Shown: positions 3,101 through 64,000 of the stretch, one piece after another
How the letters are laid out: every line of letters begins with the position of its first letter
Numbering within the stretch: position 1 is the stretch's first letter
Source of the DNA: Bugula neritina
Lineage: Eukaryota > Animalia > Bryozoa
Assembly: GCA_964035545.1 (NCBI GenBank)
Contig: OZ037767.1
Span: 6,464,707 to 6,528,706 of the forward strand
Direction: 5' to 3'
Length of the DNA stretch: 64,000 bases
The notes under the pieces: generated by a model
The model's database searches: none
What the model saw: only the letters and a program-made list of their open reading frames with translations
What the model was told of the DNA's origin: nothing
Position numbers and translations under genes: made by a program

Positions 3101-6100
3101 TATTAAAGCATTACAATATAATGGGTAATTTTACTTAATTTAGTAAGTATTATATATCTTTAATTTTTAGCTATTTTTCACAATTTAGCTGCCAGTGTAT
3201 ATGGGGTTTTTTGCAGTAAACTAATAAAATATTGCTAAATACAAATAAATAATCAAGGGTGTTTTTAATTTTGTGTGGCTTCCTATATTTGTTTCAAATT
3301 ATTTAGTGACTTGGGATTTCCGACCCATATTTCGAATATATCTATTGTGTGGTAAATTTATGTTGTGTGTGTGTGTCCTTTGTTGCCGAGATCGGTACTT
3401 CGGTCCTCCGAAACACCGATATGCCGATTCTCGGCATATCGGAATACCGAAGTACCGAAATGCCGGATTCGGCATTTCGGATTCCCGAAGTACCGATATT
3501 CGGTATTTCGGGCCTCCGATCTCGGCAAACAAAGGAATGTCTTTGTCCTGCATGTATATAAAAGCCAGCGAGTTCCAGTATAGTTCAGTCTACTACTGGA
3601 GCTCGCTGGATAAAGACCATTGATTCACTCGGACTATACTACAATAAAGATTATCTACCTTTTACCTTATTTCTCGCCTTGTTTCTCATACAAGCATGTA
3701 ACAGCACTAGTTTCATTCACAATCCACAAAACTATCACATTGGTGGCAGCGGTGGGATTCTACGAATAGCTAGTTGCTAAGAGAAATAGGATGGCCCCAG
3801 GGGACCCAGCCCCTGAGGCAGCAGCACCACCAGCCCTCACTATTGAGGCGCTGGTCACAGCCCTCCAGGGATTGCGGGGGCAAGGACAGGCAGCACCTGG
3901 TGACAGGTATCGCCTCCAGCCCCCGACTTTCGGAGGAGATGGAGACGTGGAACAGTTCATCAAGGAGTTCGAGGACGTGGCCGCCACCGCTGAATGGCCA
4001 GTATGGGTGCGCGTCCTCCAACTCCGGGCCTGTCTGACAGGCCGGGCCAGGAACTTCGCACTGGGACCCGACGAAGCCCACATCCTGCGGGCTCTTAGGG
4101 CCCGGTTCGGGTTGACCACGGAAGAGGCGTCAGACCAGCTACAAGTGATGAGGAGAGACCGAAGGACATCTCTGGAAGATCACGCTAACGAGGTAGAGCG
4201 CCTGGCTCAGGCTGCTTTCGGTCACGCCACTGGCGACGATCGGAAGCGCCTCGTTTTTAACGCGTTCTTCCGGAGTGTGAACCACCCGGACCTCCAGCGG
4301 TACTGGCTAGCCGCAAAGGTCAAGAGCCTGGACGAAGCACTAGAGATGGGGAAGGCCTACTTCCAGGTGGAAGAGCCACGGAGGGCGAACTACGCAGCTC
4401 GCCAGGTGGCCGGAGATGCAGAAGAGATACCCCCAACCACACAAGTGGCAGCAGCAGCTACCCCGTCACCTGAGCAGACGCAGCTCAACATGCTGATGAG
4501 CATGATGAAAGGCCTGCAGGCTACAGTGACAGAGTTGCAGCGCAACCAGACGGACAGGCGGGCTCCCCGCTCGCGGGACGACCCTGTCCGCCCCCCTATG
4601 CCCACTTGCTGGGAGTGCGGGATGCCAGGACATGTGAGAAGGCACTGCCCTAAGGGACAGAAGCCTTTAAACACCCGAGGCTCACGGTGAATTCCGCCAC
4701 CCGTGGGCCCCACGCCAATCCGGTCCGGGATAGGACTCGGAAGACAACAGAAGAGACCTCTCCAGAGTCGACCTATATCGAGTGGCACGCAAACCGGAGA
4801 TCTCGGAGACCGAAAGGCCTACCCGATCCTCCTGCCCTGCCACTCGATACCCGGATGGAACTAGAAGAAACCGGATGGCAGGCACCTCGGAGATCTCGGA
4901 GGCCGCAAGGTCTACCCGATCCTCCAGCCTGGCCACTCCGTAACCGGTTCGCGGGGTTGCCCGAGGAGGTTGTGGAAGAGGATTCAGCTTACTCGCAAGA
5001 GTATCCCGAGCTACCCTCCCGACCTCAGAAAACCCCCGTTGTCTCTAAGATGAAGAGGAGGCCCGCTGTGCGGACCCAAGTCGTGTCTCCCCCAGAGACT
5101 GACCGCTCCAGGAGCACCCAGCCGTATGGAAGCAGCTACTTCCTGCCCGGAAAGATTTCGGGTAAAGCTGCCACATTCCTACTGGATACTGGGTGCACTA
5201 CCAACCTGCTGAGTAGGCGTCTCTTTGACACCCTTGGTGCACGAGAGCGGGCGAGCCTCGAGCCGTATGAAGGTGCGCATGGTACGTTGGCGGACGGATC
5301 ATGCATTCCTTTCTACGGCGTCATTTCACTACCTGGACGCGTCCGTGATCAAGCAGTTCACGAGACGTTCATAGTCAGCCAGCTGAAGGAGGACGCCATC
5401 TTGGGAATGCCCTTCCTGGAGAAACACCAGTGCCACATGGATTTCCAGAAGTCAGTGGTGGTGATGGCTGGGAAGGAACTTGTCTGTGTTGACAAGTTTG
5501 GCAGGCCCTTGGTGGGCGGAGTCCAGGTAGTGCGGGACTGCACAGTTCCGGGGAGGTCCCAGGCGACTCTCCGATGCAGAGTCAACTGCAAGGAGATCGC
5601 CGGCCTGGGGATGGTTGAAGGAACGCACGGAGCCATCCGACTAGCAAACAGCCTGAATCGGCTAGATTGTCGGCAAGAGCTCCTCGTGCAGTGCATCAAC
5701 CCCTTCACGGAACCTGTCCAATTATCGGCTGGAGCGCTGGTGGGGAAGTACCACTCCATCCAGGAAGCAGATGTGGGTCCGGCACTGGAGACAGTGGCCG
5801 ACAACCAGGGAAACCCCCCTCACACCAGACGAGAAGCAGTCCCGGAGCATCTGGCTGACCTGTATGGCGGAGCATGCGGAAACTGTACGAGTAGTACTGA
5901 ACGCCAAGTACTGGCTCAACTACTCGCGGAGTACAGTGATGTCTTCAGTCGTGGCGATAGAGACATGGGGCTGACTAAGGTTATCTCTCACGAGATACCC
6001 CTGGCAGCCGACACCACTCCCATCAGGCAGCCTACCCGACGTCTGGGCCCGGAGAAGGAGAAGGAGGTGAGCCGACAGGTACAGGATCTTCTGGACCGGG

Positions 6101-9100
6101 ATCTGATTGAGCCTGCCCACGGCGCGTGGAGCTCCCCAGTGGTCCTGGTCAAGAAGAAGGATGGTAGCTGGAGATTCTGCGTGGACTACCGCAGACTCAA
6201 CAACGCTACCATCCAGGACGCCTACCCTCTCCCCCGGATAGATGAGTCTCTAGACGCCCTCGCGGGTAGCAAGTACTTCAGTACTTTGGATCTGCTTAGT
6301 GGGTACTGGCAAGTGCCCCTCAGCCCTGATGCACAGGACAAAGCAGCATTCATTACTCGCGACGGGCTCTGGAAATGGAAAGTACTGCCATTCGGACTGA
6401 CGTCCGCTCCGGCAACATTCCAACGACTCATGGAGCAAGTCCTCAGTGGGTTACACTGGAAGACCCTCCTCATCTATCTGGACGACGTCATTGTCATCTC
6501 CCCAGACTTCTCGACTCATGTCAGCCGTCTGCGGGAGGTCTTTGACCGTCTCCGGGCTGCTGGACTGAAGCTGAAGCCCTCCAAGTGTGCACTCCTGCAG
6601 CCAGAAGTCACGTACCTGGGCCATGTGGTTGGCCGTGATGGGGTCGCTACCGATCCAGAGAAGGTACAAGCTGTGAAGGAGTGGACTGTTCCCCGTGACC
6701 TCCCTGAGTTGCGTGCTTTCCTGGGCCTAGTAGGGTACTACCGGCAGTACATACCTAGGTTCGCAGGAGTGGCTCAACCGTTAAATCGGCTGACCGCGAA
6801 GGGAGTCCGGTGGCAGTGGACACAGGAGGAGCAACAGGCATTCGACCACCTCAAGCAACGGCTAATGGAAGCGCCAATCCTGGCGTATCCTGATCCAGCC
6901 AAGGAGTACATCCTGGACACCGACGCCAGCGACCACAGCGTGGGAGCCGTCTTGTCTCAAGTCCAGGGTGGAAGTGAAGTGGTCGTGGCTTACTATAGCA
7001 AGACTCTCGCGGCCGCCGAGAAGAACTACTGCACCACTAGGAAGGAACTCCTAGCAGTAGTCAAGGCGGTCAAGCACTTTCGGCCATATCTGTATGGGAA
7101 ATCGTTCCGTCTGCGAACAAACCATGCATCACTGATATGGCTGTGTAAACGTGCAGAGCCCTCGAGCCAGGTGGCTCGTTGGCTAGAGATTCTTGCTGAG
7201 TTCTCCTACCGGATAGAGCACCGTGCAGGCCGGAAGCATGGGAACGCCGACGGCATGAGCCGCCGGCCGGTAGAGGACTGTAAGCAATGCCTACACATTG
7301 AACGGCGGGACGGGGGACCCGCTCGCCTTGACGTGGAAGCAGGACTAGTGGAGGGCACCACCTACCAGTGGGAGCACGGCCATCTTCGGACCGAAACCCA
7401 CCAGGCACTCCACGCCAACCCTACTCTGCACCAGAACGTCAAGGAGCTGTGCCGACTCCAGGAGACGCTACCCGGCGCGGTAGCAGACATCTTCCGGGCC
7501 AAGAAGGAGGGCCGACGGCCTAGCGAGGAACAGCAGCGACAGGGGGACGTTGAGTTCCAACTCCTCTGTCGTCGCTGGGATGCCTTCAAGGTCAGTCCCG
7601 ATGGCCTCCTGATGATAACGTTAGCAGCAGACAACCGCCAGCAGAAGAGGGACCGCGTCGTCTGTCCACGCGCCCTCCGGCGGGAACTGATCTGGGACAC
7701 CCATAAGCAGGCTCATGCTGGAGTCAGTCGGGTCATCAGGTGTCTGCGGCTACGTTGGTATTGGTCCGGAATGACTCGGGACGTACGACTGCGGGTACGG
7801 CAATGCGAGGTCTGCCAAGCTAGCAAGCATGGCCGCCCCACGGAAACCACTGGTCGACGCCGGCTGTACGCTGGTCGACCGTGGCAAGTAGTGGCGGTAG
7901 ACCTCGTCGGGCCTATGCCGTTATCCGCCAGAGGGAACACCTGGATACTGGTGCTCACGGACCACTTTACCCGGTGGGCGGATGCTCTGGCTATTCCAGA
8001 CGCAACCGCCCCCACGGTGGCCCGGACCCTGGACCAACATGTATTCTGTTACCTCGGTTTGCCCGAGCAGATACATACAGACCAGGGTGCCCAGTTCCAG
8101 TCCCAGCTCATGGGAGACCTCTGCCGGATATGTGGGGTGAACCAGAGTCGGACCACCCCATATCACCCGCAAGGGAACGGAGTCGTCGAGAGGAACAACA
8201 GGATGTTGGGTGACGCGCTCCGGAGCCTGCTGCTTGGTCGAGGTCAGGAAGAATGGGACGTGGTGCTGCCGCAGATCATGCGGGCTTACCGCAGCACACC
8301 ACACTCCGCCACGCAGGAGACCCCAAACTTCCTGATGTTAGGCCGAGAGACGCGGGTCCCGGAACACCTGACGTACCATGTTCCTGCCCCCGAGTCACCG
8401 GTACACGAATATGTGGAGGGTCTGATGGACATCATGGGCAAAGCTCATGATGCGCTGCGCACCCAGCAGTGGCAGACCCGCACAGAGGACTCAGAGGAGC
8501 CCCCGTTGTACCAAGTGGGAGACTGGGTCTGGATGGTGAGTTACCGTAGGCGGCGCGGACAGTCGGCTAAGCTTCAGCCCAAGTTCGTCGGCCCCTACTG
8601 CGTAGTAGAGGTGCTGCCCAACCACACATACCGTGTGGAGCGCTCTGGACAGGTCTCTGTCCAGAGCGAGCAGCGCCTCAAACCTTACCATGCCAGCCCA
8701 GACGCGGTGGGTCAGGCTCCACCCCTCTTGGAGCCCCACCGTCAGCCCAACCGACGTGGACGGGCCACCCGGCCCCGTGAGGTGGAGATTATGGTCCCCA
8801 GGGAGGCAGACCAGGAGCAAGCCGCCCTGATAGAGCAGCTGGAGCGACAGCAGAGAGCGGAGCGGGAGCAGGAACAGCAGCAAGCCCTTGGCTCACAACC
8901 CTTCCCGGGGGAGGACACCCCCGTACGGGGTGAAGACGGGGACCCCCCTACCAGGGCAGCCCAGGAGCCACCAACACCACCAGAGTCTGTTCCACTTGAG
9001 AGGAGCCAGCGGCCAAGAAGACCTCCCAGGTACCTGGCAGACTATGCTGTAGGACACCTGGACGGGCCCCCTCCTGAGGAAGACCCCCCCCACACTGACT

Positions 9101-12100
9101 GCCACCCCATCTTGGTTGGAAATTCCCTCCATCACCCCGGAGAATTCCACCAAGAAGAAGAAATGGCCGACCGAATTTCGGAAGACACTCGATCACGCGA
9201 GTTGTCTTCTCGAAATCCGGGGGAAATTCCCACGAGCCACGCGACTCGGGCTTCAGCAGGTAAAACTTCTGAAGCACGAGGTTCGGCCATTTCTCATTCT
9301 GACTTCACACAGCTCGCACGGCAGTTGCAACTCAAACTAAATTCTGATTCTAATACTCATTTTGACTTTACCACTGTTCTCCGTACGCTATCAGCAGCTA
9401 TGGGAATTACTCTACCAGATACACAATCAGGTATTTCTTCTAGATTAGATCCTCCAGTTGCGGAGTCTAGTCAAATTACAGTAGACTGGTCTTTACTAGA
9501 CTTACTTGGTTCTGATCTCTTAGAACCGGAGGCCGAGATGGATCTTGGAGATGACTCTGCCATTGATACATTGTTGAATCACGATGTAGGCTCAGTCAAT
9601 TTCTGCGATACACCTCGGCCCTCGGTTTTTAACTTATCTCCATACACACCTGTGCCGAATTTCGGCGATAGTGAGACCGGCTTCTCACAGCCTCTACTAT
9701 CTATTCTAGAGGAGCGAATGGACGTTGAGGAGGCCAGTCGGTCCGACTCCCCTCTCCCACCGGCCCTTGCTTCGGCTTCTACCAGCCAGCAGGCCGCCAC
9801 CTCCTCCACAGAGGTGTGTTCCGCCATGGTTGGCCCTGACCCCAAACCGGTCGAGCTTCAGCTCACGGCCGGGGAGGAGCAGGGCATCCTACACGGCGAC
9901 CACCTGCCAGCAGAAGAAGATACCTCCCCAATACTGGCCCTGCCTCGGGCCCTGGTCGCCCGCCAGTATTGGGTGACTGGACCCACCAACCTGAAAATTG
10001 GTGATGCTTGCGGTGAGCCGGGCAACCGCATCTGCCATGAGTGTAAGAGGAAATTCTCCTCTGCACGGCGGTTGCGCGTACACGCCCCACAGCACTACAT
10101 CAACGTGTTTTGCCCGTGTGGGGAGTTCTCCTACCAGAGAGACTATGTGTTGAGACATCAACGCATAGCTCACTGCCACACGGGCTACACGTTTGCTGTA
10201 GACCAGGCCTCCTTTCCCGAATTTCGGGACCTGGTGCTGCCACACGTGGCGGATCCCCACAAACGGGCTGCTCTCGCCCTGGGATTCCCCGCGTGTAGGC
10301 CTGTTCGGGAAGAAGAAGGGGAGCCCGCCGCGACACCCCAACCGGCAGCCACCCAGCCACTTCGGGTCATGCTGGCACGGGTCGGACCAGGTGCCAGGGC
10401 CGATTCATCGGACCTGGGCCCCCGACCCTCGGCGGCGGGCGAGAAGCAGACGCACCGCCAGCGACGTCCTGCCCGTGGTACTACCGACCGCCCTAGGCAC
10501 CAGACGTCAGCTCAGTTGGCAGAGGAGGTCCACCAGTTACGCCGGCAGCTCCGCAGATATGAAGAGGAGCTGGGGCAACTCCGGAGACGAGTTAGCCGCC
10601 TGGAGCGGGGTCGATCTGGCGACCGCCGCTGAGACTATTTGTATAGTTTTTTGTTTTTTTTTCTTTTTTTTCTTTTCTACTCTTATTCTTTGTTTGTTTA
10701 TTATATGTGTGTAAGTTCTTCATGTAATGCATGTACCTATTCATGCTCTGTTTTTCTTGTGTGTGCACAAATCTTCCCTGTTGTGTGTTTGTGTTGTGTA
10801 CGCCTCTTTATCGGAAAGCATGCTTTCCGATGGGGGGTGTGTGTGGTAAATTTATGTTGTGTGTGTGTGTCCTTTGTTGCCGAGATCGGTACTTCGGTCC
10901 TCCGAAACACCGATATGCCGATTCTCGGCATATCGGAATACCGAAGTACCGAAATGCCGGATTCGGCATTTCGGATTCCCGAAGTACCGATATTCGGTAT
11001 TTCGGGCCTCCGATCTCGGCAAACAAAGGAATGTCTTTGTCCTGCATGTATATAAAAGCCAGCGAGTTCCAGTATAGTTCAGTCTACTACTGGAGCTCGC
11101 TGGATAAAGACCATTGATTCACTCGGACTATACTACAATAAAGATTATCTACCTTTTACCTTATTTCTCGCCTTGTTTCTCATACAAGCATGTAACAGCA
11201 CTAGTTTCATTCACAATCCACAAAACTATCACAATATCTATTTAGCTCATATGACAATGATGTTGAGTTTTAATGCCGCATGATCCCTTCCCAGTACATA
11301 AACCTGCCTCATACAGTAAATTTTTATAAATTTTAAGTAAACTTTAAGTTTTGGTGCTAACTTGCTGATGCGTACAAAATAAAATAAAATGATCCATTTA
11401 GAAATCATTGCAAAATATACAAGTAGTTTACACCTCTGTAACATTGTGAATAATAAACCACTGCTCTCCATGCCATTTATACTAGACGCAAGAGGGGATA
11501 ACTAGCACAGTATATACAACTCGGAGTCAAGAACATGAAGAAACACTTATGTACCATTACACTTGGAGGTGGAGATAACTTCAGCAGAGCCAAGGACTGC
11601 AACTCTATCACTGTAGGTTAAAGAGGAGACAACTGACGTGCATAGAGTACCGGAGTCTATTGTCTGGATACAGTTGCTATATAATCCCAGATCAAAGAGA
11701 TAATAGCCTGTTGAGTTACTCAATTTCTCTGCTACAATCTAAATCAAAATTGTTTTGATAAAATTGAGCATCCACATATAAAAACATATTACACATTATA
11801 TTTAGAAAATAGCAAAGTTAATTAAATTTATGCTTGACAATTTTTGATAGTATTAACAAACTTAAAACGATATACTTGCTAAATTGGAAACTCTATAGCT
11901 CCATGTTCTTATAAAAAATAATTAGCTGCCTGAACTAACTAGGATATTGACAAAGTCAGCTATAATAACTGTTATAATGTAGAGTATAGCAGTTATTATG
12001 ATGTATATTACAATAACTAAGCTTATAATTTGCATAGCAATTATGATTATTATTGACATTATAATAATAATTATTGACATTAATACAATTATTATACCAC

Positions 12101-21700: not shown

Positions 21701-24700
21701 TTAGCTTACACCTTGGCAAAAGGTAAGCTGTACAGTCACCAACTAGATGATATGTAATATATAATTGTTTATACTTCTACAGTTTTGGCCAGTTGAAACT
21801 TACTATAAAGGTACATATACCATAGATAGAGAATAGCTGAAGACAGTAATGGTAATTATCAGAAAAAAGACATTACTTTTCCAGCTTTCCGCTTCCTTGA
21901 CCTAGATGGTGGTTTAGGTTTAGATACATTTATTGGCACGACTTGTGTAGCTGATTGTGGCTGATCTGTGACCTCAGTATGTGCCGGTTCTAAAAGAAAA
22001 AGATATGCATTTTAAAGACAAGAGAAATACAATTAAAGGTAATTTGACTTAGTATTCTGAAGGCACAGTTATGGTTTATACCTTCACAGCTTTATTTCAG
22101 AATATTAATTTGATAGAGCAGAAACAATTATTCAAGCTTTCTTATACACTATAAAGGCACATTTTCAAAATTATCGTCCAACTTTTTTGCACATGTATGC
22201 TCAGTATGCCTTTGGCAGTAAAACGATTAACTGTTTAACCATCCATTTTAGTATTGATAAAAACACTTCAGCCAATCAGGTGAAATCTGTAATCTTGTGA
22301 CTTATTATTCTTACTATTGTAATGGATTCTCATCCTCTATTGTTCTGAAATAACTGCGTGCATCAGTATACTATAAATACTGTTGCGTATAGTTCTTAAT
22401 GCTGTAATTATAGTTAAGTAACCTAGCTTGCTAATGCCTAAGTATGGTGATTACTGTTAAGCTTTCAGCATAATGTAATTTTACTGAAATACGCATTCTG
22501 AAGTTATGTAATATCTCTTTTACTAATAGTGCTTTTCTTTTACTAATGTTGCTTTCTTTTGTGTGTGTCCTTTGTTGCTGAGATCGGCATTTCGGTCTTC
22601 CGAAATGCCGAATATCGGCATTTCGGAACCCCGATCTCGGCAACAAAGGAATGTCTTTGTCTCGCTTGTATATAAAAGCCAGCGAGTTCCAGTGTAGTTC
22701 AGACTACTACTGGAGCTCGCTGGTAGTAGGACCACATAAGCTGTATCTGATGCAAATAAAGTTTATCTTTCATTCGTATTCAAATACTTGGCTTATTCTC
22801 TCTAACGCAAAGAGTATGTTCAAGCACTAGTTGCATTCATAACCCACAGTTTACTACATTGGTGGCAGCAGTGGGGTTATACGAATAGCTAGTTGCTGGA
22901 AGAAAGAAGATGGCCCCAGGGGACCCAGCCCCTGAGGCAGCGGAGACACCAACCCTCACTGTTGAGGCGTTAGTCACAGCCCTCCAGGAATTGCGGGGGC
23001 AAGGACAGGCATCACCTGGTGACAGGTATCGCCTCCAGCCCCCGAATTTCGGAGGAGAAGGAGACGTAGAGCAATTCATCAGGGAGTTCCAGGATGTGGC
23101 CACCATCGCTGAATGGCCAGTACGGGTGCGCATCCTCCAACTTCGGGCCTGTCTGACAGGCCGGGCCAAGAGCTTCGCTCTTGGGCCTGATGATGAGCAC
23201 ATCATGCGGGCTCTCAGGGCCCGGTTCGGTCTGACGACTGAAGAGGCGGCAGACCAACTACAAGTGATGAGGAGAGACCAAAGAACACATCTGGAAGATC
23301 ACGCTAACGAGGTAGAACGCCTGGCTCAGGCTGCTTTCGGTCACGCCACTGGCGACGACCGGAAGCGCCTCGTTTATAACGCGTTCTTCCGGAGCGTGAA
23401 CCACCCGGACCTGCAGCGATACTGGCTGGCCGCCAAGGTCAGCAGTATAGAAGAAGCGCTGAAGATGGGGAAGGCTTACTTCCAAGTAGAAGAGCCTCAG
23501 AAGGCAAGCTACACAGCTCGCCAGGTGGCCAAAGACGAAGAAGAGGCACCCCCATCTCCAACCCCACAGGTGGCGGCAGCAGTAACTCCATCACCCGAGC
23601 AGACGCAGCTCACCATGTTGATGAACATGATGAAAGGCCTGCAGGCTACGGTGTCGGAGTTGCAGCGCAACCAGACGGACAGGCGGGCTCCCCGATCGCG
23701 GGACGACCCTGTCCGCCCGTCTCTGCCCACCTGTTGGGAGTGCAGGATGCAAGGTCATGTGAGAAGGCACTGCCCTAAAGGACAGAGGCCTTTAAACACC
23801 CAAGGCCCACGGTAACTTCCGCCACCCGTGGGCCTCACGCTAATCCCGTCCGGGATAGGACTCGGAGGGTAACAGAAGAGACCTCCACAGAGTCTGCCGG
23901 TACCGAGTGGCAGGCACCACGGAGATCTCGGAGACCGAAAGGTCTACCCGATCCTCCTGCCATGCCACTCGAAACCCGGATGGAGCTAGAAGAAACCGGA
24001 TGGCAGGCACCTCGGAGATCTCGGAGACCGCAAGGTCTACCCGATCCTCCAGCCTGGCCACTCCGTAACCGGTTCGCGGGGTTGCCCGAGGAGGTTGTGG
24101 ATGAGGATTCAGCTTACTCGCAAGAGTACCCCAAGCTACCCTCCCGACCTCAGAAAACCCCCGTTGTCTCTAAGACGAAGAGGAGGCCCGCTGTGCGGAC
24201 CCAAGTTGTGTCTCCCCCAGAGACTGACCGCTCCAGGAGCACCCAGCCGTACGGAAGCAGCTACTTCCTGCCCGGAAAGATTTCGGGTAAAGCTGCCACA
24301 TTCCTACTGGATACTGGGTGCACTACCAACCTGCTGAGTAGGCGTCTCTTTGACACTCTTGGTGCTCGAGAGCGGGCGAGCCTCGAGCCGTATGAAGGTG
24401 CGCATGGTACGTTGGCGGACGGATCATGCATCCCTTTCTACGGCGTCATCTCACTGCCTGGACGCGTCCGTGATCAAGCAATTCACGAGACGTTCATAGT
24501 CAGCCAGCTGAAGGAGGACGCCATCTTGGGAATGCCCTTTCTGGAGAAACACCAGTGTCACATGGATTTCCAGAAGTCAGTGGTGGTGATGGCTGGGAAG
24601 GAACTTGTCTGTGTTGACAAGTTTGGCAGGCCCTTGGTGGGCGGAGTCCAGGTAGTGCGGGACTGCACGGTTCCGGGGAGATCCCAGGCGACCCTCCGAT

Positions 24701-27700
24701 GCAGAGTCAACTGCAAAGGGATCGCCGGCCTGGGGATGGTTGAGGGAACGCACGGAGCCATCCGACTAGCAAACAGCCTGAATCGGCTAGATTGTCGGCA
24801 AGAGCTCCTCGTGCAGTGCATCAACCCCTTCACGGAACCTGTCCAATTATCGGCTGGAGCGCTGGTGGGGAAGTACCACTCCATCCAGGAAGCGGATGTG
24901 GGTCCGGCACTGGAGACAGTGGCCGACACCCAGGGAAACCCCCCTCACACCAGACGAGGAGCAGTCCCGGAGCACCTGGCTGACCTGTATGGCGGAGCAT
25001 GCGGAAACTGTACGAGTAGTACTGAACGCCAAGTACTGGCTCAACTACTCGCGGAGTACAGTGATGTCTTCAGTCGTGGCGATGGAGACATGGGGCTGAC
25101 TAAGGTTATCTCCCACGAGATACCTCTGGCAGCCGGCACCACTCCCATCAGGCAGCCTACCCGACGTCTGGGCCCGGAGAAGGAGGTGAGCCGACAGGTA
25201 CAGGATCTTCTGGACCGGGATCTGATTGAGCCTGCCCACGGTGCGTGGAGCTCCCCAGTGGTCCTGGTCAAGAAGAAGGATGGTAGCTGGAGATTCTGCG
25301 TGGACTACCGCAGACTCAACAGCGTTACCATCCAGGACGCCTACCCTCTCCCACGGATAGATGAGTCTCTAGATGCCCTCGCGGGTAGCAAGTACTTCAG
25401 TACTTTGGATCTGCTTAGCGGGTACTGGCAAGTGCCCCTCAGTCCTGATGCCCAGGATAAAGCAGCATTCATTACTCGCGACGGGCTCTGGAAGTGGAAA
25501 GTACTGCCATTCGGACTAACGTCCGCTCCGGCAACATTCCAACGGCTCATGGAGCAAGTCCTCAGTGGGTTACACTGGAAGACCCTCCTCATCTATCTGG
25601 ACGATGTCATTGTCATCTCCCCAGACTTTTCGACTCATGTCAGTCGTCTGCGGGAGGTCTTTGACCGTCTCCGGGCAGCCGGGCTGAAGCTGAAGCCCTC
25701 CAAGTGCGCAATCCTGCAGCCAGAAGTCACATACCTGGGCCATGTGGTTGGCCGTGATGGGGTCGCTACCGATCCAGAGAAGGTACAAGCTGTGAAGGAG
25801 TGGACTGTCCCCCGCGACCTCCCTGAGTTGCGTGCATTCCTGGGCCTAGTAGGGTACTACCGGCAGTACATACCTGGTTTCGCAGGAGTGGCTCAGCCGT
25901 TAAATCGGCTGACCGCAAAGGGAGTCCGGTGGCAGTGGACACAGGAGGAGCAGCAGGCATTCGACCACCTCAAGCAACGGCTAATGGAAGCGCCAATCTT
26001 GGCGTATCCTGATCCAGCCAAGGAGTACATCCTGGACACCGACGCCAGCGACCACAGCGTGGGAGCCGTCCTGTCTCAAGTCCAGGGTGGAAGTGAGGTG
26101 GTCGTGGCTTACTATAGCAAGACTCTCGCGGCCGCCGAGAAGAACTACTGCACCACTAGGAAGGAACTCCTAGCAGTAGTCAAGGCGGTCAAGCACTTTC
26201 GGCCATATCTGTATGGGAAATCGTTCCGTTTGCGAACAGACCATGCATCACTGATATGGCTGTGTAAACGTGCAGAGCCCTCGAGCCAGGTGGCTCGTTG
26301 GCTAGAGATTCTTGCCGAGTTCTCTTACCGTATAGAGCACCGTGCAGGCCGGAAGCATGATAACGCCGACGGCATGAGCCGCCGGCCGGTAGAGAACTGT
26401 AAGCAATGCCTGCACATTGAACAGCGGGACGGGGGACCCGCTCGCCTTGACGTGGAAACAGAGCTAGTGGAGGGCACCGCCTACCGGTGGGAGCACGGCC
26501 ATCTTCGGACCGAAACCCACCAGGACGGTGTCCAGGCGCTCCACGCCAACCCTACTCTGCACCAGAACGTCAAGGAGCTGTGCCGACTCCAGGAGACGCT
26601 ACCCGGCGCGGTAGCGGACATCTTCCGGGCCAAGAAGGAGGGCCGACGACCTAGCGAGGAACAGCAGCGGCAGGGAGACGTTGAGTTCCAACTCCTCTGT
26701 CGTCGCTGGGATGCCCTCAAGGTCAGTCCTGATGGCCTCCTGATGATAACGTTAGCAGCAGACAACCGCCAGCAGAAGAGGGACCGCGTCGTCTGTCCAC
26801 GCGCCCTCCGGCGGGAACTGATCTGGGACACCCATAAGCAGGCTCATGCTGGAGTCAGTCGGGTCATCAGGTGTCTGCGGCTGCGTTGGTATTGGCCCGG
26901 AATGACTCGGGACGTACGACTGCGGGTACGGCAATGCGAGGTCTGCCAAGCTAGCAAGCATGGCCGCCCTACGGAAACCACTGGTCGACGCCGGCTGTAC
27001 GCTGGTCGACCGTGGCAAGTAGTGGCGGTAGACCTCGTCGGGCCTATGCCGTTATCCGCCAGAGGGAACACCTGGATACTGGTGCTCACGGACCACTTTA
27101 CCCGGTGGGCGGATGCTCTGGCTATTCCAGACGCAACCGCCCCCACGGTGGCCCGGACCCTGGACCAACATGTGTTCTGTTACCTCGGTTTACCCGAGCA
27201 GATACATACGGACCAGGGCGCCCAGTTCCAGTCCCAGCTCATGGGAGACCTCTGCCGGATATGGGGGGTGAACCAGAGTCGGACCACCCCATATCACCCA
27301 CAAGGGAACGGAGTCGTCGAGCGGAACAACAGGATCTCCTGCGTGGCGGAGTGTGGTGTGCTGCGGTAAGCCCGCATGATCTGCGGCAGCACCACGTCCC
27401 ATTCTTCCTGACCTCGACCAAGGAGACCGGGAGACTGGGTCTGGATGGTGAGCTACCGTAGGCGACGCGGACAGTCGGCTAAGCTTCAGCCCAAGTTCGT
27501 CGGTCCCTACTGCGTAGTGGAGGTGCTGCCCAACCACACGTACCGTGTGGAGCGCTCTGGACAGATCTCTGTCCAGAGCGAGCAGCGCCTCAAACCTTAC
27601 CATGCCAGCCCAGACGCGGTGGGTCAGGCTCCACCCCTCCTGGAGCCCCACCGTCAGCCCAACCGTCGAGGACGGGCCACCCAGCCCCGAGAGGTGGAAA

Positions 27701-30590
27701 TTGTGGTTCCCAGAGAGTCGGACCAGGAGCAGGCCGCCTTGATAGAGCAGCTGGAGCGACAGCAGAGAGAGGAACGGGAACAGGAACAGCGACAAGCCCT
27801 AGGACCACCACCCTCCCTGGGGGAGGACACCCCCACCCCCGTGTTGGGTGAAGGCGGGGACCCCCCTACTAGGGTAGCCCAGGAGCCACCAACACCACCG
27901 GTGCCTGTTCCAATTGAGAGGAGCCAGCGGTCAAGAAGACCCCCCAGGTATCTGGCAGACTATGCTGTTGGGCACCTGGAGTGGCCCCCCCATGAGGACA
28001 ATCCATCCAGTGCAGACGACCACCCCATCTTGGCTGGAAATTCCCTCCATCACCCCGGAGAATTCCACCAAGAAGAAGATTTCACACAGCTAGCACGTGA
28101 GTTACAGCTTAAGTTGAACTCTAATCCTGATACCCCTAAGTATAATTTAAACACTGTTATTCAGACACTAGCATCAGCCATGGGAATTACCTCGCCAGAT
28201 ACCCAAACAGAGGAGTGTAAGGATACCAAGGAGGCCAGTCGATCCGACTCCCCTCCTCCACCAGCTCCTGTTCCGGCTCCCCGCAGCCAGCAGGACGACA
28301 CCCCCTCTTCCGAGGTGTGTTCCGCCAGCGTTAGTGGCCCTGACCTCGAACCGGTTGAGCTCCAGCTCACAGCTGGGGAGGAGCAGGGCACTCTATACGG
28401 CGACCACCTCGCAGGCAGAGACGAGGAGGACTCTCCAATACTGGCAATGCCTCGGGCCCTGGTCGCCCGCCAGTATTGGATATCTGGAGCACCAGGCAGC
28501 CAGATAGAAGAACAGACTCAGCCAACCCACCCACAATTGCCCCGTCACGGGCAGAGTATGGCACTTCCTTACCGGGAGTGCGTCCTGGATAGCGCAATCG
28601 AGGCCTGGTCCGGTACCCTTGACCGTTGTACAGAAGGGATAGAAAGCCTGGTGCACCACCTCAAATAACTGAACCGGACAATTGGGAGCCGCCAGCATTG
28701 GCCACCCGGACTGTATACATATTACGGGTACTACTATCGTTTATATTATTGTGATACGTGTGACTAATCATAATACTTTCTGTTAATCGCATATTTTTCT
28801 ACTTTTGTGTTTTATTTTTTTTTTTTTTTTTTTTGTTTGTTTTGTTTTGTGTGAAATCATTGTTCTGTTATCGAAAAGGGGATGCTTTTCGATGGGGGGA
28901 GAATGTAATGGATTCTCATCCTCTATTGTTCTGAAATAACTGCGTGCATCAGTATACTATAAATACTGTTGCGTATAGTTCTTAATGCTGTAATTATAGT
29001 TAAGTAACCTAGCTTGCTAATGCCTAAGTATGGTGATTACTGTTAAGCTTTCAGCATAATGTAATTTTACTGAAATACGCATTCTGAAGTTATGTAATAT
29101 CTCTTTTACTAATAGTGCTTTTCTTTTACTAATGTTGCTTTCTTTTGTGTGTGTCCTTTGTTGCTGAGATCGGCATTTCGGTCTTCCGAAATGCCGAATA
29201 TCGGCATTTCGGAACCCCGATCTCGGCAACAAAGGAATGTCTTTGTCTCGCTTGTATATAAAAGCCAGCGAGTTCCAGTGTAGTTCAGACTACTACTGGA
29301 GCTCGCTGGTAGTAGGACCACATAAGCTGTATCTGATGCAAATAAAGTTTATCTTTCATTCGTATTCAAATACTTGGCTTATTCTCTCTAACGCAAAGAG
29401 TATGTTCAAGCACTAGTTGCATTCATAACCCACAGTTTACTACACTATCATACCAATGCAATTGACTTTGTCTATACATTCTTTCAATGATAGAGACAAA
29501 AGACAGGCTTTGAAATAGGGCTCACTCAAGTTCAATTAACTGAGACAAGGCGATAGCATGCATATACATGAGCCTTTGTTTTGTATCATCGGTAGCAGGA
29601 TTGACTAGAGGTGCTTATAGCTCTGTGCTATAATTTACACTCTAAAGTACTAAATGAAACGGAATTGTGAATTATATTATCATTCACCTTCAGTTCATAC
29701 AGAAATATTTGCAACTGTTAAAAGAGGAACTACTGAAATTACCTGAAGGTGTATTATTGCTAGAAATAGCTAAAATGACTGCTGGGTTCACATTCTGCAG
29801 CACTGCTTCCGGTTCTGTAGTGGAGTTACTCAACTCTGTGGATGCAGGCTCAAACCTGTAAATGAAAAACTTACTTCAATAACAATAGTCACGTTTTTTG
29901 ATAGCCTCTAGAGAAAGTGTAAAATTGCTGTTGGGTGTCATTTTAATAATATAATGAAATTTCCTTCCATATATTTGTACATAAATCTCAAGCTAGTGGT
30001 GAAAGGGAAGAATATCTAAAAACCAACAATACTAACTTTTAAAGCACTTTAACCTGAAAAAACAGAGAATTCCTCTTTAACATCTTAAAAAAATCAATGG
30101 CATTTAGAACGCAATGTTTTGCATGTTTAGAAAACTTCTGAATTATATTCAGACTGGTTTTAAAACCAGCATACTGCTATTGGTTTATCAAATTAAAAAT
30201 TACTAAAAAGGCACATGGCATCATTTGACTCATGGTAAACAAACTTTAAAGTTGCTGCTCAAAAAGTTTTCCGATTGCTATGAAATTTTGCCAACAAGAA
30301 AAAAATATATATCACAAACATCACCGTTTCAATAATTAGGTTTGGTTTGATGGTTGGTTTCAAAAGCCGATTTCTACACAAAGCATACCAATAGGAATAG
30401 GCTATGACCACCATGCAAAAATTAACTTTTTACAGAACTGTAACTTTCTAGATGCAGGTTTTATAATTACAACGGTCTGAAACAACAAGTGACACAAGGG
30501 GCTCACAGCTACTCACAGTTGATCTTTAGCAATTTCTTCATTAATAGATGAGAAGCCGTACTGAAGAAGGTTGCTGTTGTTTTCTTCCAT
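18750..30590 (-). CDS. HMG20: HMG20A/B (iBRAF/BRAF35)-like HMG-box protein
   Basis: Exons about 30517-30590, 29743-29856, 21877-21989, 21436-21600, 20920-21023, 20417-20561, 19827-20041 and 18750-18901. HMG box RDENAPRMPQTGYVMYMNERR..., DIPIFTEDFLEHNK, coiled coil ELRKLNYQYEEQNAILSTHVD, C-terminal IDTYMAKLHQLIL. Confidence 0.9.
22318..22858 (+). repeat. 5' LTR of element 2 (541 bp)
   Basis: TGTAA...CTACA termini; TATA, post-TATA hairpin and AATAAA as in element 1. Confidence 0.95.
22860..22878 (+). promoter_or_regulatory. Primer binding site, tRNA-Leu variant
   Basis: TGGTGGCAGCAGTGGGGTT, two substitutions relative to the element 1 PBS. Confidence 0.8.
22910..23815 (+). CDS. gag: Gag, element 2
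   Basis: 301 aa, clearly homologous to element 1 Gag; CWECRMQGHVRRHC knuckle; TTTAAAC slip site at 23791-23797. Confidence 0.95.
   Translation: MAPGDPAPEAAETPTLTVEALVTALQELRGQGQASPGDRYRLQPPNFGGEGDVEQFIREFQDVATIAEWPVRVRILQLRACLTGRAKSFALGPDDEHIMRALRARFGLTTEEAADQLQVMRRDQRTHLEDHANEVERLAQAAFGHATGDDRKRLVYNAFFRSVNHPDLQRYWLAAKVSSIEEALKMGKAYFQVEEPQKASYTARQVAKDEEEAPPSPTPQVAAAVTPSPEQTQLTMLMNMMKGLQATVSELQRNQTDRRAPRSRDDPVRPSLPTCWECRMQGHVRRHCPKGQRPLNTQGPR
23791..27369 (+). pseudogene. pol: Pol, element 2: intact PR-RT-RH, integrase truncated by an inversion/deletion
   Basis: The -1 frame is open from the slip site; after VERNNR the sequence is an inverted integrase fragment containing TAA. Confidence 0.9.
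27429..28668 (+). pseudogene. Disconnected 3' part of element 2 pol (GPY region plus shortened, variant extension)
   Basis: Homologous to element 1 from 8517 to about 9981 with two in-frame gaps, then unrelated sequence. Confidence 0.85.
28904..29444 (+). repeat. 3' LTR of element 2
   Basis: Direct repeat of 22318-22858. Confidence 0.95.
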
Positions 30591-32790: not shown

Positions 32791-35700
32791 ATGTCACAAA
32801 ATGAAAATGAAACTCAAAGTCAATCATCTTCAGAAAATCAAAATGGAAGTATAGTGCAGGTAAATTAAACCTATAAGTTAAATGTAACTACAAGCTGTAT
32901 TCACTTCGAGAATTTAAGTTTCACTTCCGAACTAAAATAGTATTTAATTTTATATTTATTAATATTATTAATACTAATCTTAATCAAGTTCAACTGTGAC
33001 TGTCACACTCACTGTGAGTGTGAAGTATGTAAAATTAAATGTTCTGGCCCACTCATTCTCAATTTGTAAATTAAATTTTTTCGGAATTTAAGTTTTACAA
33101 ATAAATTTGAATTAGATTTGGGGCAAGGTTTGTTTTAGTCTAACTTATTTGGAATAATGTTATAGTTATACTAATCATAATGATAATGCATGATTTAATT
33201 TTAAATTATATACCAATATCATCATTATCATTATGATAGTATTAATTTTTTAGAAATGACTTGCTGAGTTGTTGCTGTTCGGTGTTCAACCTGTGGGAAA
33301 TACTACGCTAATGCCTATAGCTCATGCTAATTTTAATCACTGAATGTCTTGGTTATTAGTATAACTGTATGATAATTGATAGGATTGTTTATTTAAATTT
33401 CAATCTTCGTTTTCAGTTTTATTCATTTTTTTTAATTTTAAAATTATGTTTGCTCTAGTAGTAGTGCCAATTGATATGCTTATAGTTATAATAATTTTAA
33501 AATTTGATTTGGTTTTATTTTAGCCATTACACCTGGAGCTATTGCTAATGCTTTCAATTGTTTTTTAAACAAGTATTAGTGATTGCCTCCAAGCCTAATT
33601 CTTATTAATTGTGAATTGTATGCTCTTTATTGTTTTTCTTAGTTAATTTCCTGTTTTTACAGTGTTAGTTTTATTAGGCTAAAGATCGAAATTAGGATAA
33701 TAGTAGTAATCAATATATTTCAACTCAACTAAGTCTAAGAAATATCTAATTAGTATGAAAACTATTTAGTGGCTTGTTCTACTTTGATTTGAAGCTCAGT
33801 TTTAAGTCAACAGTAAATTGCTGAAACCAGATACTAGGCCTATTTCCCAATGACCTAAGTCCAAGTTTAAAAGGCTACCAACTCATAGGCTTGTGTGGCT
33901 GATGAGATCTCCATCTTCATATGCGCAAGAAGGGTTGACAATTGCATTAAGTCACCCTACTTTTGTAAATACAATTCTGATTTAGAGATTTATTACTGTT
34001 ATATTTTTTTGCTTGTCTAATCTTAAAGTATCCATATGTGGCCTACTATCAGCTTCATACAGTTAGTTTTATGTAATCATTTTGTGTGCAGATGTTTTCA
34101 ATCAATTCATTGCCTTCAGCTTAGTTATTTCTAAACTGGTTTCTGCTCACTTACTTGTAATTACTGCTCAGTTTAAAAGCATGAAACACAGGCTATGTAT
34201 CCTGGTAACAATTAATAATTGTAGGATTTTTATTCAGAGACATTACAACTATATTCTTCTAGTACGCTGTAAGCCAGTAAAACAGTATAAAATATCTGTA
34301 GGTCACCTGAACAACAAAAACTAAAGAAAGAACTCTGTATTTGCTAGAAGTTGCTGTATTTGTAAAAAATATTTGGATAGGACTTCGCTGGTTGACTGAA
34401 ACCTCACACTCAGATTGCGTGACACAAATGTTCAAAAAATATGCTGTAAATCAATTATATCAGTCGCTGTGGGCATATTTTTCGAATTTTAAAGTATATA
34501 AATGTGACTAGGCAGCCTGCTTTAATGTGTCATAAACATCCAAATTATGTAATCTATAAGTAACAATTGTTTTTTTTTCTACAGATGATTTGGTTGCTTT
34601 TGATTTATTGACAAAATTTAATTAATGTATAATAAATGTAAGCAATAGTAAATAATATGTTTTCTGTCGGCCTGCTTCACTTATAACTGCAATACTTAAC
34701 TATCCACCAGTCAAAAAATTTCATTACTGGTTCTTTTCTAACTGAAAAGCTTAATATTTGGGATTTCATTGGAGCTTAATGTCTTGCAGTTATTGCAATG
34801 TTTCTGTTATATGATTCAAACCAAAACTTGGCAGTTTGATACTTTCAAAGTATTTCTATTGGCTATAGACTCTTTATATAGCTCTTTGAACCAACTATTT
34901 AATTTGTTGGTAAACAAGTCACGTGTATTTATTAGAATTTATTCTTTTTCGTAATTTGATGTGTAAAATTTGTCTATAAATAACTTTTCTTCACAAAATT
35001 CAAATTCCATGAGCTATTTTTATGCCTCATAATATTTGTTATATCTTACTTGTGGTGGATTTTAAGCAACTAGTTTGGCTCAGTATTCCTAAAACATTCT
35101 TTCACTCTAGAATGATGAAGCATCAAGCACAGAGAATTCTTCTGGCACAGCTACCAGCAGGGCACCGCAGCAGACAACATGGCAGATGATGAAGGGATTC
35201 CTGTTCAGGATGGTCATGATTTACATGGTCACCAGCTTCTTCAGACGTCCTGCTACTACTCCCACAACCCCCACTGTTGAAGATGGGGTCCCTGTCCCAG
35301 TCAGCCGTGGTCCTTCCCACAATCTCTATTCTGAGAACAGTAAATTTGTATGTTCATCATGCACCTATTAGCTCTACCTACCTGTACTGTCAGTAGCTAT
35401 TTCATATGGATGCCAAGTCCTTTCTAAACCATTTTAATAAAGCGGAAATTTCATAAATAGTTTGATCTGGCATAAAGTTATATAATACAGTTATTTCAGA
35501 TATTAGCTACTCAAATACTTTAATACTTAAATCATCATTGAAGACTGATTGTGTTGATAAATGATTTGAACTTATAGTGATAGAAAAGCAAGAAGGTTTT
35601 TTAATCATATTAATTATGTTTAAGAATAGTTTTATTAAAATTTCTATACTTCATTACGGAGAAAAGTTACTTATGACAACTACTTTTCTTATACTGTAGG

Positions 35701-41700: not shown

Positions 41701-42149
41701 TAAAAATGAAATGTCATTTCCTTTTTAACCCATTGCAATTTTGTGTCTATTTTGATCTACTTTAACAGCAAAATGTGAACTAACTGTTGAATGTTGTCAT
41801 ATCTCAACATATCCAACTTTCTATTGCTATACTGTTTTACTTTAAGTTGATAGACTAAAACTTTCTATCTAAATTATGTTGACAACAGCTTTTCTTGCTA
41901 ACCAACAAAAAGGTGAAAAAGCTCCACTTCATTAAACTATTCGCACTGTATGACTATGTACTTGTTATTGTTCCAGATATAGTGTTTCTAATCTTCTTGT
42001 ATCAAAGATGGATTTATAAAGTAGACCCTACTAGAGTAAATGAGTTTGGAACGACTGGGGAGCCAGATGACGCCCCTGCTGTCCAGGATGGTGATGGTGC
42101 TGAGGCTATGCAAGCAGTCAAATCTTCTGGTGCCAAAAAGGATGACTAG
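32791..42149 (+). CDS. CLPTM1: CLPTM1 (cleft lip and palate transmembrane protein 1 family, putative lipid scramblase)
   Basis: About 14 GT-AG exons. Hallmarks WQMMKGFLFR, SHWHPNLTIN, NDYWNL, ETNPYLLALT..HSVFEFLAFKNDIQFW, GFIMMTPQLFINYKLKSVAHLPWR, DDLFAFVIKMP, YQRWIYKVDPTRVNEFG, terminal KKDD. Confidence 0.95.
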
Positions 42150-63114: not shown

Positions 63115-64000
63115 ACTTGGCTCAATGGGAAACTATCAGTTTGTTGCTGTAAAAGAACAATATTTTATCAAAATTGAAAGAAATGAATTTTATTGCTATT
63201 ATATTATTAATTCCTTTTAATCAAAAGTCACCAATGTTTATTGCATAGCTATTTGTATATTATAGCTAAATTTAATTGTATTTGCATATCTCTATACAAC
63301 TTTCCAATTTAATTGCAAGACAGATTATTTGTTTTTTTAAAGCACTGAGTTACATAAAAATAGTTAAGCGGTTTTTTATTCAACTAGGTTATGAACTGAA
63401 AAACACATAATTGAATGTTATATTTATTGCTTTAACTTTTAAGCTTTCAAAAATGTTGCTAAAAAGTTGTTTCATTGTAAGCTTAATGGATGCTTTTTGC
63501 TTTAACTGTTTGCCATTGAAAGCTGCAAGTTTGAGCTAACAACAATATAACCAGTGCTTCAGGAACAAAAGTATAGCCTTGGCAATAAATAATCAACTTT
63601 TGTTAAAAAGGGGCTCAGGATATGCTACAGTTCAGAGTTTACCATTGGAGTATGCAAGAGCTCTTTGTGTTTTTTTTTGGACTTGGGCTATGAGTTTAGT
63701 ACAATGAATAAGGGTGAACTTGGCATTGCTAAAAGTTGAAACTATAAACTAATGCCTTTAAACCTAAAACTTATTAAAATGCAAATATTTGCAAAACAAG
63801 CACACTAAAAACCTAATAGGTCATCAGTTTGATTTTAGTGTATACTATATGCTGTATTGAAGCTAAAATTATTAGTTGCAATAAGAATATTTTGTAATTA
63901 TGATTTACGTTTCAACAAATGTATGCAGGCTGATTGTTGATTGCCAATGGAGCTAACACCAAATTCATACTGTGTAATTTATTAGAATAGGAAAACCAAA

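Follow-up and report, generated by a model that had tools for sequence, protein, structure and literature searches.

We found that a Ty3/Gypsy retrotransposon of the bryozoan Bugula neritina (E1) extends its pol frame past the integrase into a long tail that carries a selected two-finger zinc domain, an acidic segment and a C-terminal coiled coil. We tentatively read this module, at somewhat below even chances, as a dimeric regulator, encoded by the element, that acts on chromatin or transcription at the element's own LTR, either as an activator or as an anti-silencer. Coordinates refer to the window, that is, the whole 64,000-nucleotide stretch that was analysed, and features lie on its forward (+) strand unless otherwise stated.

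The element and its open frame

LTR comparison places E1 at 3346-11233, both LTRs included. The 5' LTR (394 bp, 3346..3739) has a TATA-like box at 3555 and AATAAA at 3643, and there are 0 differences over 394 bp between it and the 3' LTR (10840..11233). Directly after the 5' LTR lies a TGG-starting 18-mer primer-binding site (3741..3758), which putatively matches the 3' end of tRNA-Leu; a look-up in a published table of primer-binding sites gave no match. A short polypurine tract (10829..10837) is seen as a purine run just before the 3' LTR. The gag gene (3791..4690) encodes a CCHC knuckle at its C-terminus (zf-CCHC, E 0.018), the domain search giving no capsid match, and a slippery heptamer within the gag/pol overlap (4666..4672) predicts a -1 frameshift. 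According to the domain search, pol proper (4654..9045) runs up to the integrase end and includes protease (5146-5415), RT (6148-6627), RNase H (6817-7203) and an integrase with H2C2 (7666-7830), core (7876-8169), SH3-like domain (8518-8640) and integrase-end motif (9001-9045). This is the Ty3/Gypsy (Metaviridae) order, and the hallmarks used for the family were the LTR pair, the primer-binding site and polypurine tract, gag, and the order of pol domains (PMC7879559).

The original prediction had the pol frame open for about 528 codons past the integrase end, and indeed 9046-10629 holds 528 stop-free codons after RYLADY, in an ORF (4654-10632) of 1992 aa. Each of the other five frames has 13-26 stops over the same region; shuffling the bases of the tail 10,000 times gave no open frame and 17.5 stops on average. 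Between the integrase end and a conserved Met (see below) there is an in-frame linker (9046..9399), AT-rich from ~9250, with the best-scoring putative acceptor-like AGs at 9312 and 9394 and a dN/dS of 0.33 in comparison with the sister element E2. This part of the frame is also open in E2 and in the relatives P0002, P0003, P0120 and P0159, and in P0002 and P0003 (44-53% identity) the integrase-end motif is likewise in frame with the fingers. An open and selected linker suggests that the fusion of integrase and tail may matter. A profile search restricted to proteins of 698-2000 aa gave no second full-length domain-bearing Pol (0 of 3673 candidates), a weak indication that such proteins are rare. 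Two familiar readings of the tail were rejected: an env-bearing (Errantivirus-type) one, given that no env family was matched and the highest 19-residue hydropathy in a scan for transmembrane segments was 0.93, and a chromodomain one, the domain search of E1 having returned no chromodomain and no MBD.

A conserved zinc domain

The tail includes a folded zinc domain of 126 aa (9931..10308), composed of Trp-containing N-terminal helices, two fingers, a strand and two helices, for which the AlphaFold model reaches pLDDT 96. The canonical C2H2 finger predicted from 10033 is present (finger 1, 10033-10095, C-x2-C-x12-H-x3-H), its score against zf-C2H2 (E 0.0023, 18.7 bits) being below the 25.2 cut-off. 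As regards the variant second finger (10111-10176), the C-x-C-x12-H part stood, and the proposed H-x4-H ending was replaced by H-x5-C: the fourth ligand is more likely Cys 10174 than His 10171. When the first Cys or His at least 3 residues past the third ligand was recorded, it was Cys in 61 of 76 domains, 38 of these with x5 spacing; in 2 domains it was a His at x4, one of them being E1's, and E1's His varies between copies. The linker between the fingers has five residues and is non-canonical, not TGEKP-type. The helix of finger 1 has three positions at which Arg recurs, in 43, 54 and 45 of 72 domains respectively.

Two conditions that would have refuted the original prediction, an extension unconstrained in other copies and zinc ligands that are not conserved, did not apply. 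In the zinc domain 28 of 40 listed differences are synonymous, pN/pS is 0.14-0.19, no indel is listed, and none of the differences listed between copies changes any of the eight proposed ligands. C38, H51, C61 and C63 are invariant across 54 aligned domains, and the ligands are retained even at 25-30% identity. Judged by these substitutions, the zinc domain is under purifying selection.

The domain has 300 relatives at E<=1e-3, and every named one is bryozoan; some of them come without gag or pol. Those bryozoan proteins that share the domain with no gag/pol match (XP_067940963/4, XP_067944745, KAF6037488 and KAF6040922) belong to two genera, three of four end in a C-terminal coil, and one pair can be aligned over ~300 aa (27%, E 7e-20). 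In a tree of 63 domains (quick method, midpoint root) 27 of 60 branches are open and the direction of capture is not fixed. Locus searches gave one weak, unrelated-looking match among metagenome contigs and another among viral contigs (L001, L002), and none in prokaryote genomes. Contig depth in X1, possibly the source sample, was 1485-1843 for near-identical module pieces and 92 for the flank, which hints at many copies, although depth does not translate into copy number. The share in X2 was small.

The best structural alignments of the finger pair (18 top rows) are with DNA-binding C2H2 tandems, Kaiso coming first (Z 3.7, rmsd 2.7, 57 aligned), all of these being weak matches (Z<5). Foldseek found no match at E<=0.001 in PDB or BFVD with either model, a wide search with a 263-aa model returned generic helices only, and the ESM Atlas features of E1's domain were unnamed clusters plus generic C2H2, below the recognition bar. 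A C2H2 finger followed by a C-x-C finger also occurs in ASCIZ/ATMIN and in the plant IDD, STOP and WIP proteins. Structures of the ASCIZ/IDD type made up 5 of 10 Atlas rows for a Bugula relative, at a sub-bar TM of 0.15-0.21, and IDD10 appeared at Foldseek rank 9 (E 1.8, below the bar). None of 32 members matched the ASCIZ or IDD-STOP-WIP Pfam families.

A predicted nested start and the other parts of the module

Met 9400 (context GCT ATG G) is kept in 15 of 16 hand-picked relatives with upstream sequence, which are not independent of each other. When relatives were picked by a model lacking the Met, it was present in 10 of the 11 proteins that include upstream sequence, and 11 further protein calls begin at it. 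Two other Met columns are frequently substituted (13 of at least 29 and 19 of at least 33), and there is no ATG in the stretch 9164-9399. The Kozak-like context is not unique to Met 9400, because the codon after Met also starts with G in both control columns (12 of 13 and 18 of 19). Altogether, the conservation of this Met suggests a predicted nested accessory protein of 410 aa (9400..10632). We also considered a protease site at this position. Protease cleavage prefers a hydrophobic residue before the cut, and such a site is unlikely because the residue that precedes the Met is often K, E, D or N.

Past the Met, the acidic/hydrophobic stretch predicted from 9481 was found again, with a net charge of -10 over 30 residues from 9496, and the segment (9481..9576) may be activation-domain-like. 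Its region (residues 140-222) has matches in 32 of 175 other proteins at 25-67% identity; at least one finger-bearing relative, P0011, lacks it. Beyond the fingers, a conserved L/P-x-V-x-L motif (10360..10374), in E1 of the form L-x-V-x-L, is putatively HP1-box-like. In its looser form, defined post hoc once the alignment had been viewed, the motif occurs in 24 of 43 tails compared with a mean of 6.9 in shuffles (max 16), and in 20 of these 24 it lies 64-85 residues past finger 2. Strict PxVxL is not enriched (6 of 43 tails; shuffles 2.2, max 6). Variants of PxVxL with L or C bind HP1.

The C-terminal part had been described as a basic patch with a heptad zipper. The heptads are there (10516..10602), with 8 of 8 a/d positions hydrophobic in the best 28-residue window, and a coil is predicted in 26 of 40 tails as compared with 0.9 in shuffles. 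Structure prediction gave the homodimer a score of 0.17, the mark being 0.32, which speaks neither for nor against dimerisation. The coil is rich in Arg. The basic patch is poorly conserved and separated from the coil by a variable Pro-containing linker. A bZIP reading was rejected: no conserved basic region lies directly before the zipper, and a family search matched bZIP families in none of 32 members. By its sequence, E1 has an ordinary coiled coil here rather than a bZIP.

The LTR array and a sister element without fingers

The U3 of the LTR contains nested palindromes of CCGA/TCGG words (3376..3536, no strand assigned; repeated in the 3' LTR), with 9 CCGA and 9 TCGG, many of them 8 bp apart, sited before the TATA box. 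CpG o/e is 1.85 in this array and 0.35-0.39 in host DNA. As RNA, U3 gives a branched fold with G-U pairs (z -14.6) that 0 of 200 shuffles equal in stability; the array accommodates pairs of the G-U type, as expected of a hairpin formed in RNA. Rfam placed the structure in no family at gathering score (3 chance-level rows). The array is a candidate target, in the form of DNA sites or of RNA hairpins.

At 11 kb from E1, and in a similar AT-rich site, we found the sister element E2 (22318..29444), which has identical 541-bp LTRs, a 4-bp TSD and a gag-pol 93% identical to that of E1. Its integrase is broken by a deletion with a 94-bp inversion. The E2 tail keeps the Met and lacks acidic segment, fingers and coil, ending in a different helix; one alternative tail is common to E2 and the likewise finger-less P0120. 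The U3 array is present in E2 too. The module is considered accessory because E2 lacks the fingers and the acidic segment, and from E2 and P0120, which are both without it, we infer that it is dispensable in cis.

Discussion

The suggestion that the tail is a dimeric regulator is partly supported: it gains from the conserved Met, the HP1-box-like motif and the Pol-free bryozoan domain proteins, and loses from the absence of a bZIP and from dispensability in cis. In a possible mechanism, a subgenomic RNA, spliced or started by a promoter within the AT-rich stretch 9250-9400, would present Met 9400, and a Pol-fused form of the tail would also be made after frameshifting. The coil would dimerise the 410-residue protein, so that paired fingers may read repeated sites, the first candidate being the CCGA/TCGG array, rich in CpG, that precedes the TATA box. 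The acidic segment would recruit coactivators and the HP1-box-like motif would engage or displace HP1, and both together may maintain transcription of the copies in a genome that is depleted of CpG and probably methylated. The regulator would act in trans and would thereby allow finger-less sisters such as E2 to spread. There are precedents in VANC (PMC5735166) and foamy-virus Tas (PMC7828637), and for an internal promoter in Tor (PMC4402516). A narrower version is possible and more doubtful: a bryozoan lineage of Gypsy elements would have, in frame within the last part of pol, a genuine transcription factor whose zinc-finger family is new and also occurs in host genes, and this factor would bind the palindromic CpG array of the LTR as a dimer and counter HP1-based silencing.

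It is also conceivable, and in our view rather unlikely, that the tail stays on the integrase or is co-packaged and tethers the integration complex, the fingers reading DNA and L-x-V-x-L binding HP1; insertions would then be steered to heterochromatin, as is thought for chromodomains and CopiaMBD domains. The tail does sit in the integrase ORF, where chromodomains sit, the in-frame join is kept in P0002 and P0003, the linker is under selection, and CopiaMBD offers a precedent (PMC6673714). However, the fingers are 295 residues beyond the integrase-end motif, behind the conserved Met and the activation-like segment, and the same architecture occurs in Pol-free proteins. Also, E1 and the finger-less E2 are in similar AT-rich sites, although both possibly used the same integrase. 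A clearly improbable option is that the module works on RNA in the manner of Cer1 CERV or retroviral Rev/Rex: it would form multimers on the hairpins that U3 contributes to the 3' end of the genomic RNA, and so favour export, translation or packaging of that RNA. The very stable U3 fold and the Arg-rich coil would suit this, as would CERV itself, which is encoded by a Gypsy element, is expressed separately and combines a Cys finger with a predicted leucine zipper (PMC10309623). Yet the fold neighbours, weak as the matches are, are mostly DNA-binding C2H2 proteins, the acidic segment and the HP1-box-like motif point to chromatin, and the Cys/His arrangement is unlike the C4-type loop of CERV.

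Slightly less probable still is a module that acts on host genes or represses its own element. It would then be either a bryozoan transcription-factor copy taken up by the element, imitating its relatives in the host or competing with them, or an HP1 recruiter that limits copy number. Host-like relatives in two bryozoan genera agree with this, and PxVxL motifs of KAP1 recruit HP1 for silencing (PMC4592553); against it, nothing ties the module to any host target and the acidic activation-like segment is kept in many element-type relatives. Finally, a functionless captured fragment or chance read-through is favoured by the alternative tail shared by E2 and P0120, which indicates that finger-less forms have spread. 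Against this reading stand the low pN/pS, the lack of listed indels and ligand changes, and ligands retained in distant relatives; the selection data already largely refute it.

Among known systems, CopiaMBD of arthropods is likewise a lineage-restricted LTR family with a host-shared DNA-binding domain in the integrase ORF; it is a Copia element with an MBD and a proposed targeting role, whereas E1 is a Gypsy with zinc fingers, and a separate start, an acidic segment and a coil are not described for CopiaMBD in the cited part of the source (PMC6673714). Chromoviruses, the chromodomain-bearing Ty3/Gypsy elements, also carry a chromatin-related domain past the integrase in Pol (PMC6673714, PMC13524379); E1 differs by having no chromodomain and a multi-part tail of 528 aa. 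Foamy-virus Tas and the transactivators of complex retroviruses are 3'-encoded regulators as well, placed between the enzymes and the 3' LTR (PMC7828637, PMC4402516), and a possible internal promoter would be common to E1 and Tas-type systems. In contrast, E1 is an invertebrate Gypsy without env, with its module in frame with pol and no fold match in BFVD. VANDAL transposons of Arabidopsis similarly combine an accessory protein, VANC, with repeated short non-coding motifs (PMC5735166, PMC6719617); they are plant DNA transposons, and in E1 the pairing of protein and motif is conjectured. CERV of C. elegans Cer1 is another Ty3/Gypsy accessory regulator that has a Cys finger and, by prediction, a leucine zipper; it differs from E1 in its spliced mRNA, C4-type loop, G-protein-like domain and RNA export (PMC10309623).

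Compared with the original prediction, the conserved Met 9400, the HP1-box-like motif, the U3 array and the finger-less E2 are additions. No earlier description of an E1-type module was found in the papers searched. Regulators that an element itself encodes have been examined in depth in complex retroviruses and plant VANDAL transposons. For animal Gypsy elements, the literature consulted for comparison describes env, chromodomains or CERV, an RNA-export factor. A selected, foldable and apparently undescribed zinc-finger module together with a candidate LTR target makes self-activation or un-silencing directly testable, and variants that have or lack each part occur naturally. The pol-less relatives in two bryozoan genera constitute a case of domain exchange between transposon and host regulator families. 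If the narrower version of the regulator reading is true, E1 would represent a complex-retrovirus-style transactivator or a VANC-style anti-silencer in an animal LTR retrotransposon.

Results

E1, an LTR element of the window (3346-11233, +), is bounded by identical 394-bp LTRs. Its gag (3791-4690) overlaps the pol frame (4654-10632, 1992 aa), with a slippery heptamer at 4666 inside the overlap, and the Pfam domains of pol follow the Gypsy order (protease, RT, RNase H, integrase), which fits the description of Metaviridae (PMC7879559). E1 is a Ty3/Gypsy member without env. An 8-bp exact direct repeat flanks it (3338-3345 / 11234-11241), readable alternatively as a 4-bp duplication carrying a single mismatch; the target duplication at the sister element E2 is 4 bp. 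Eight bp would be a long duplication for a Gypsy element. In the RNase H active-site region (~7120) E1 departs at one position from E2 and from the sequencing-run contigs, which may leave this copy less than fully functional by itself. Both elements hold a duplicated unit with 93-bp spacing (4777-4947) where pol begins, ahead of the protease, and no Pfam family covers the roughly 150 residues that separate protease from RT in E1 (5450-5900).

As the original prediction had it, the pol frame stays open for 528 codons past the integrase-end motif RYLADY (tail, 9046-10632). All 10,000 shuffled versions contain a stop, and the remaining five frames carry 13-26 stops. The acidic stretch (9481-9576), first finger (10033-10095) and heptads (10516-10602) had also been placed correctly. 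The integrase-end motif is fused in frame to fingers in the database proteins P0002 and P0003 as well, so the fusion is not unique to the E1 copy.

AlphaFold models 9931-10308 as a single domain (pLDDT 96, pTM 0.88) in which extra helices and a strand flank the fingers. Structural neighbours were found for the finger pair only, and all are weak: ranks 1 to 18 are taken by proteins with tandem zinc fingers, almost every one bound to DNA, and Kaiso scores best (Z 3.7, rmsd 2.7, 57 residues). ASCIZ and IDD/STOP/WIP proteins were among the sub-threshold rows for a Bugula relative, and the whole domain received no name in any library searched. A search with the last 263 aa gave 3 matches among 6074 candidates and 28 among 3234; a profile built from these 31 relatives, which are 34-77% identical to the query, matched 300 representatives at E<=1e-3, the best 150 of them listed. 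Across 54 sequences that span the domain, hand-chosen out of 169, four of the ligands never vary and another three persist in 90% or more. The second finger (10111-10176) had been read as C-x-C-x12-H-x4-H; that last His occurs in only 2 of 76 domains, and C-x-C-x12-H is followed by Cys instead in 61. In P0170/P0035 and P0062 the zinc domain occurs twice with a terminal coil, one of these being a Watersipora RefSeq protein with isoforms.

Constraint across copies is evident in contigs of three runs from one study (X1, one sequencing run, may be the source sample). They show 117 differences from the zinc domain; among the 40 best supported there is no indel and 28 are synonymous (pN/pS 0.14-0.19, p<1e-6), and the other 12 touch no proposed zinc ligand while striking the originally proposed His once. 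Between E1 and E2, dN/dS is 0.12 for the pol core, 0.31 for gag and 0.39 for the shared tail segments.

At least six of eight a/d positions are hydrophobic in the terminal helix of 26 of 40 tails, against 0.9 in shuffles, and the helix is a predicted coiled coil. The proposed leucine zipper thus survives as a heptad coil and not as a bZIP, an identity rejected for want of the basic region. The acidic segment was matched in 32 of 175 other proteins and is absent from P0011, P0120, P0159 and E2. A distant subgroup (P0026, P0029, P0040, P0182, P0177) shares a starting Met right at this segment; P0177 continues beyond the coil into residues that look as if translated from a T-rich 3' region, a purine tract and the beginning of an LTR, which suggests, from the protein only, that it too may sit directly upstream of a 3' LTR. 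The stretch from fingers to coil contains a conserved island, [PLC]-x-V-x-[LV], a pattern drawn up after the alignment had been seen. Of 43 tails, 24 have it (6.9 on average in shuffles, maximum 16), and in 20 of the 24 its spacing from finger 2 is much alike. The window's motif begins with Leu, and strict PxVxL by itself is not enriched. The island resembles the PxVxL box through which KAP1 engages HP1 (PMC4592553).

Similarity to distant relatives resumes at a Met at 9400. Among 16 rows picked by hand that extend upstream of it, 15 retain this Met, E1 and E2 included. A model leaving out this Met matched 36 of 190 proteins: 14 have no upstream cover, 11 gene calls start at the Met, 10 (counting the window's own) have it internally and one is missing it. 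The next codon is G-first in 14 of 15 cases and the previous one purine-first in all 14 cases that could be read unambiguously. The next-codon pattern recurs in two control Met columns and is thus a weak argument for a Kozak context, but in those columns Met is often swapped for other residues. A 410-aa protein is likely to be initiated separately at Met 9400. The linker between integrase end and this Met has a dN/dS of 0.33, by which the fusion to Pol also appears to be under selection.

E2 (22318-29444, +) lies 11 kb from E1, with gag-pol 93% identical, and has identical LTRs yet an interrupted integrase. Its tail keeps the linkers and the equivalent of Met 9400 and has a different ending, which recurs nearly unchanged in the metagenome protein P0120; the finger-less tail is therefore a propagated variant and, as both lack the module, the latter is accessory in cis. 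Organism-named members occurred in 4 of 30 clusters looked up, all from the bryozoans Watersipora subatra or Bugula neritina. Their proteins carrying the zinc domain gave no gag/pol match, and one pair is alignable across the two genera for ~300 aa, so they are likely host genes. The animal that carries the window is accordingly likely to be a bryozoan. In a quick tree the integrase-linked members form one supported clade (SH-aLRT 98) amid sequences that diverge further, and the Bugula protein KAF6037488 branches near this clade; the tree does not discriminate capture from domestication.

Immediately upstream of the TATA box, the E1 U3 contains nine CCGA and nine TCGG words as nested palindromes (3376-3536, 10870-11030) with three inner hairpins; those of E2 (~22568-22655, ~29154-29241) have one. 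The palindrome RNA fold has a z of -14.6, and no Rfam family matched at gathering score. Only 141 bp of the E1 and E2 LTRs align, the remainder being unrelated. The E1 word array is CpG-rich, whereas the surrounding genome is CpG-depleted (o/e 0.35-0.39), which suggests methylation of the host. Exons that we take to resemble CLPTM1 (35111-42149, +), legumain (52888-56481, +) and a nuclear-receptor DNA-binding domain (62899-63132, -) indicate an intron-bearing animal. A 27-bp tandem repeat occupies 56466-56681.

Discussion

Tentatively, we read the tail as a dimeric DNA-binding regulator. A subgenomic RNA would express the protein, which would dimerise, bind DNA and work in trans on the element's own LTR, either activating it or countering its silencing. 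In this sense its way of working may be likened to that of foamy-virus Tas and VANC, although it is not a member of either family. The retained in-frame fusion favours another role, that of an integrase tether to heterochromatin, which we consider rather unlikely. The tail does stand at the position of the chromodomains in chromodomain-bearing elements, and shares an ORF with integrase as CopiaMBD does, but belongs to neither family. An RNA-export factor acting on the U3 hairpins is improbable, and we are just as doubtful of a host-directed regulator or self-repressor. That the tail is a mere passenger is very improbable.

A full-text literature search, confined largely to open-access papers and lying outside Repbase, Dfam and GyDB, gave no description by title or abstract of a Gypsy C2H2/C2HC module or of bryozoan Gypsy tails. 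The terms 'zinc finger' and 'C2H2' are absent from the main text of a metazoan-wide survey that includes bryozoans (PMC13524379). The zinc-finger tail module is real, has a defined architecture and is under selection, and it is apparently undescribed so far. E1 is a new form among LTR elements bearing accessory domains, and the candidate regulator function of its tail is directly testable.
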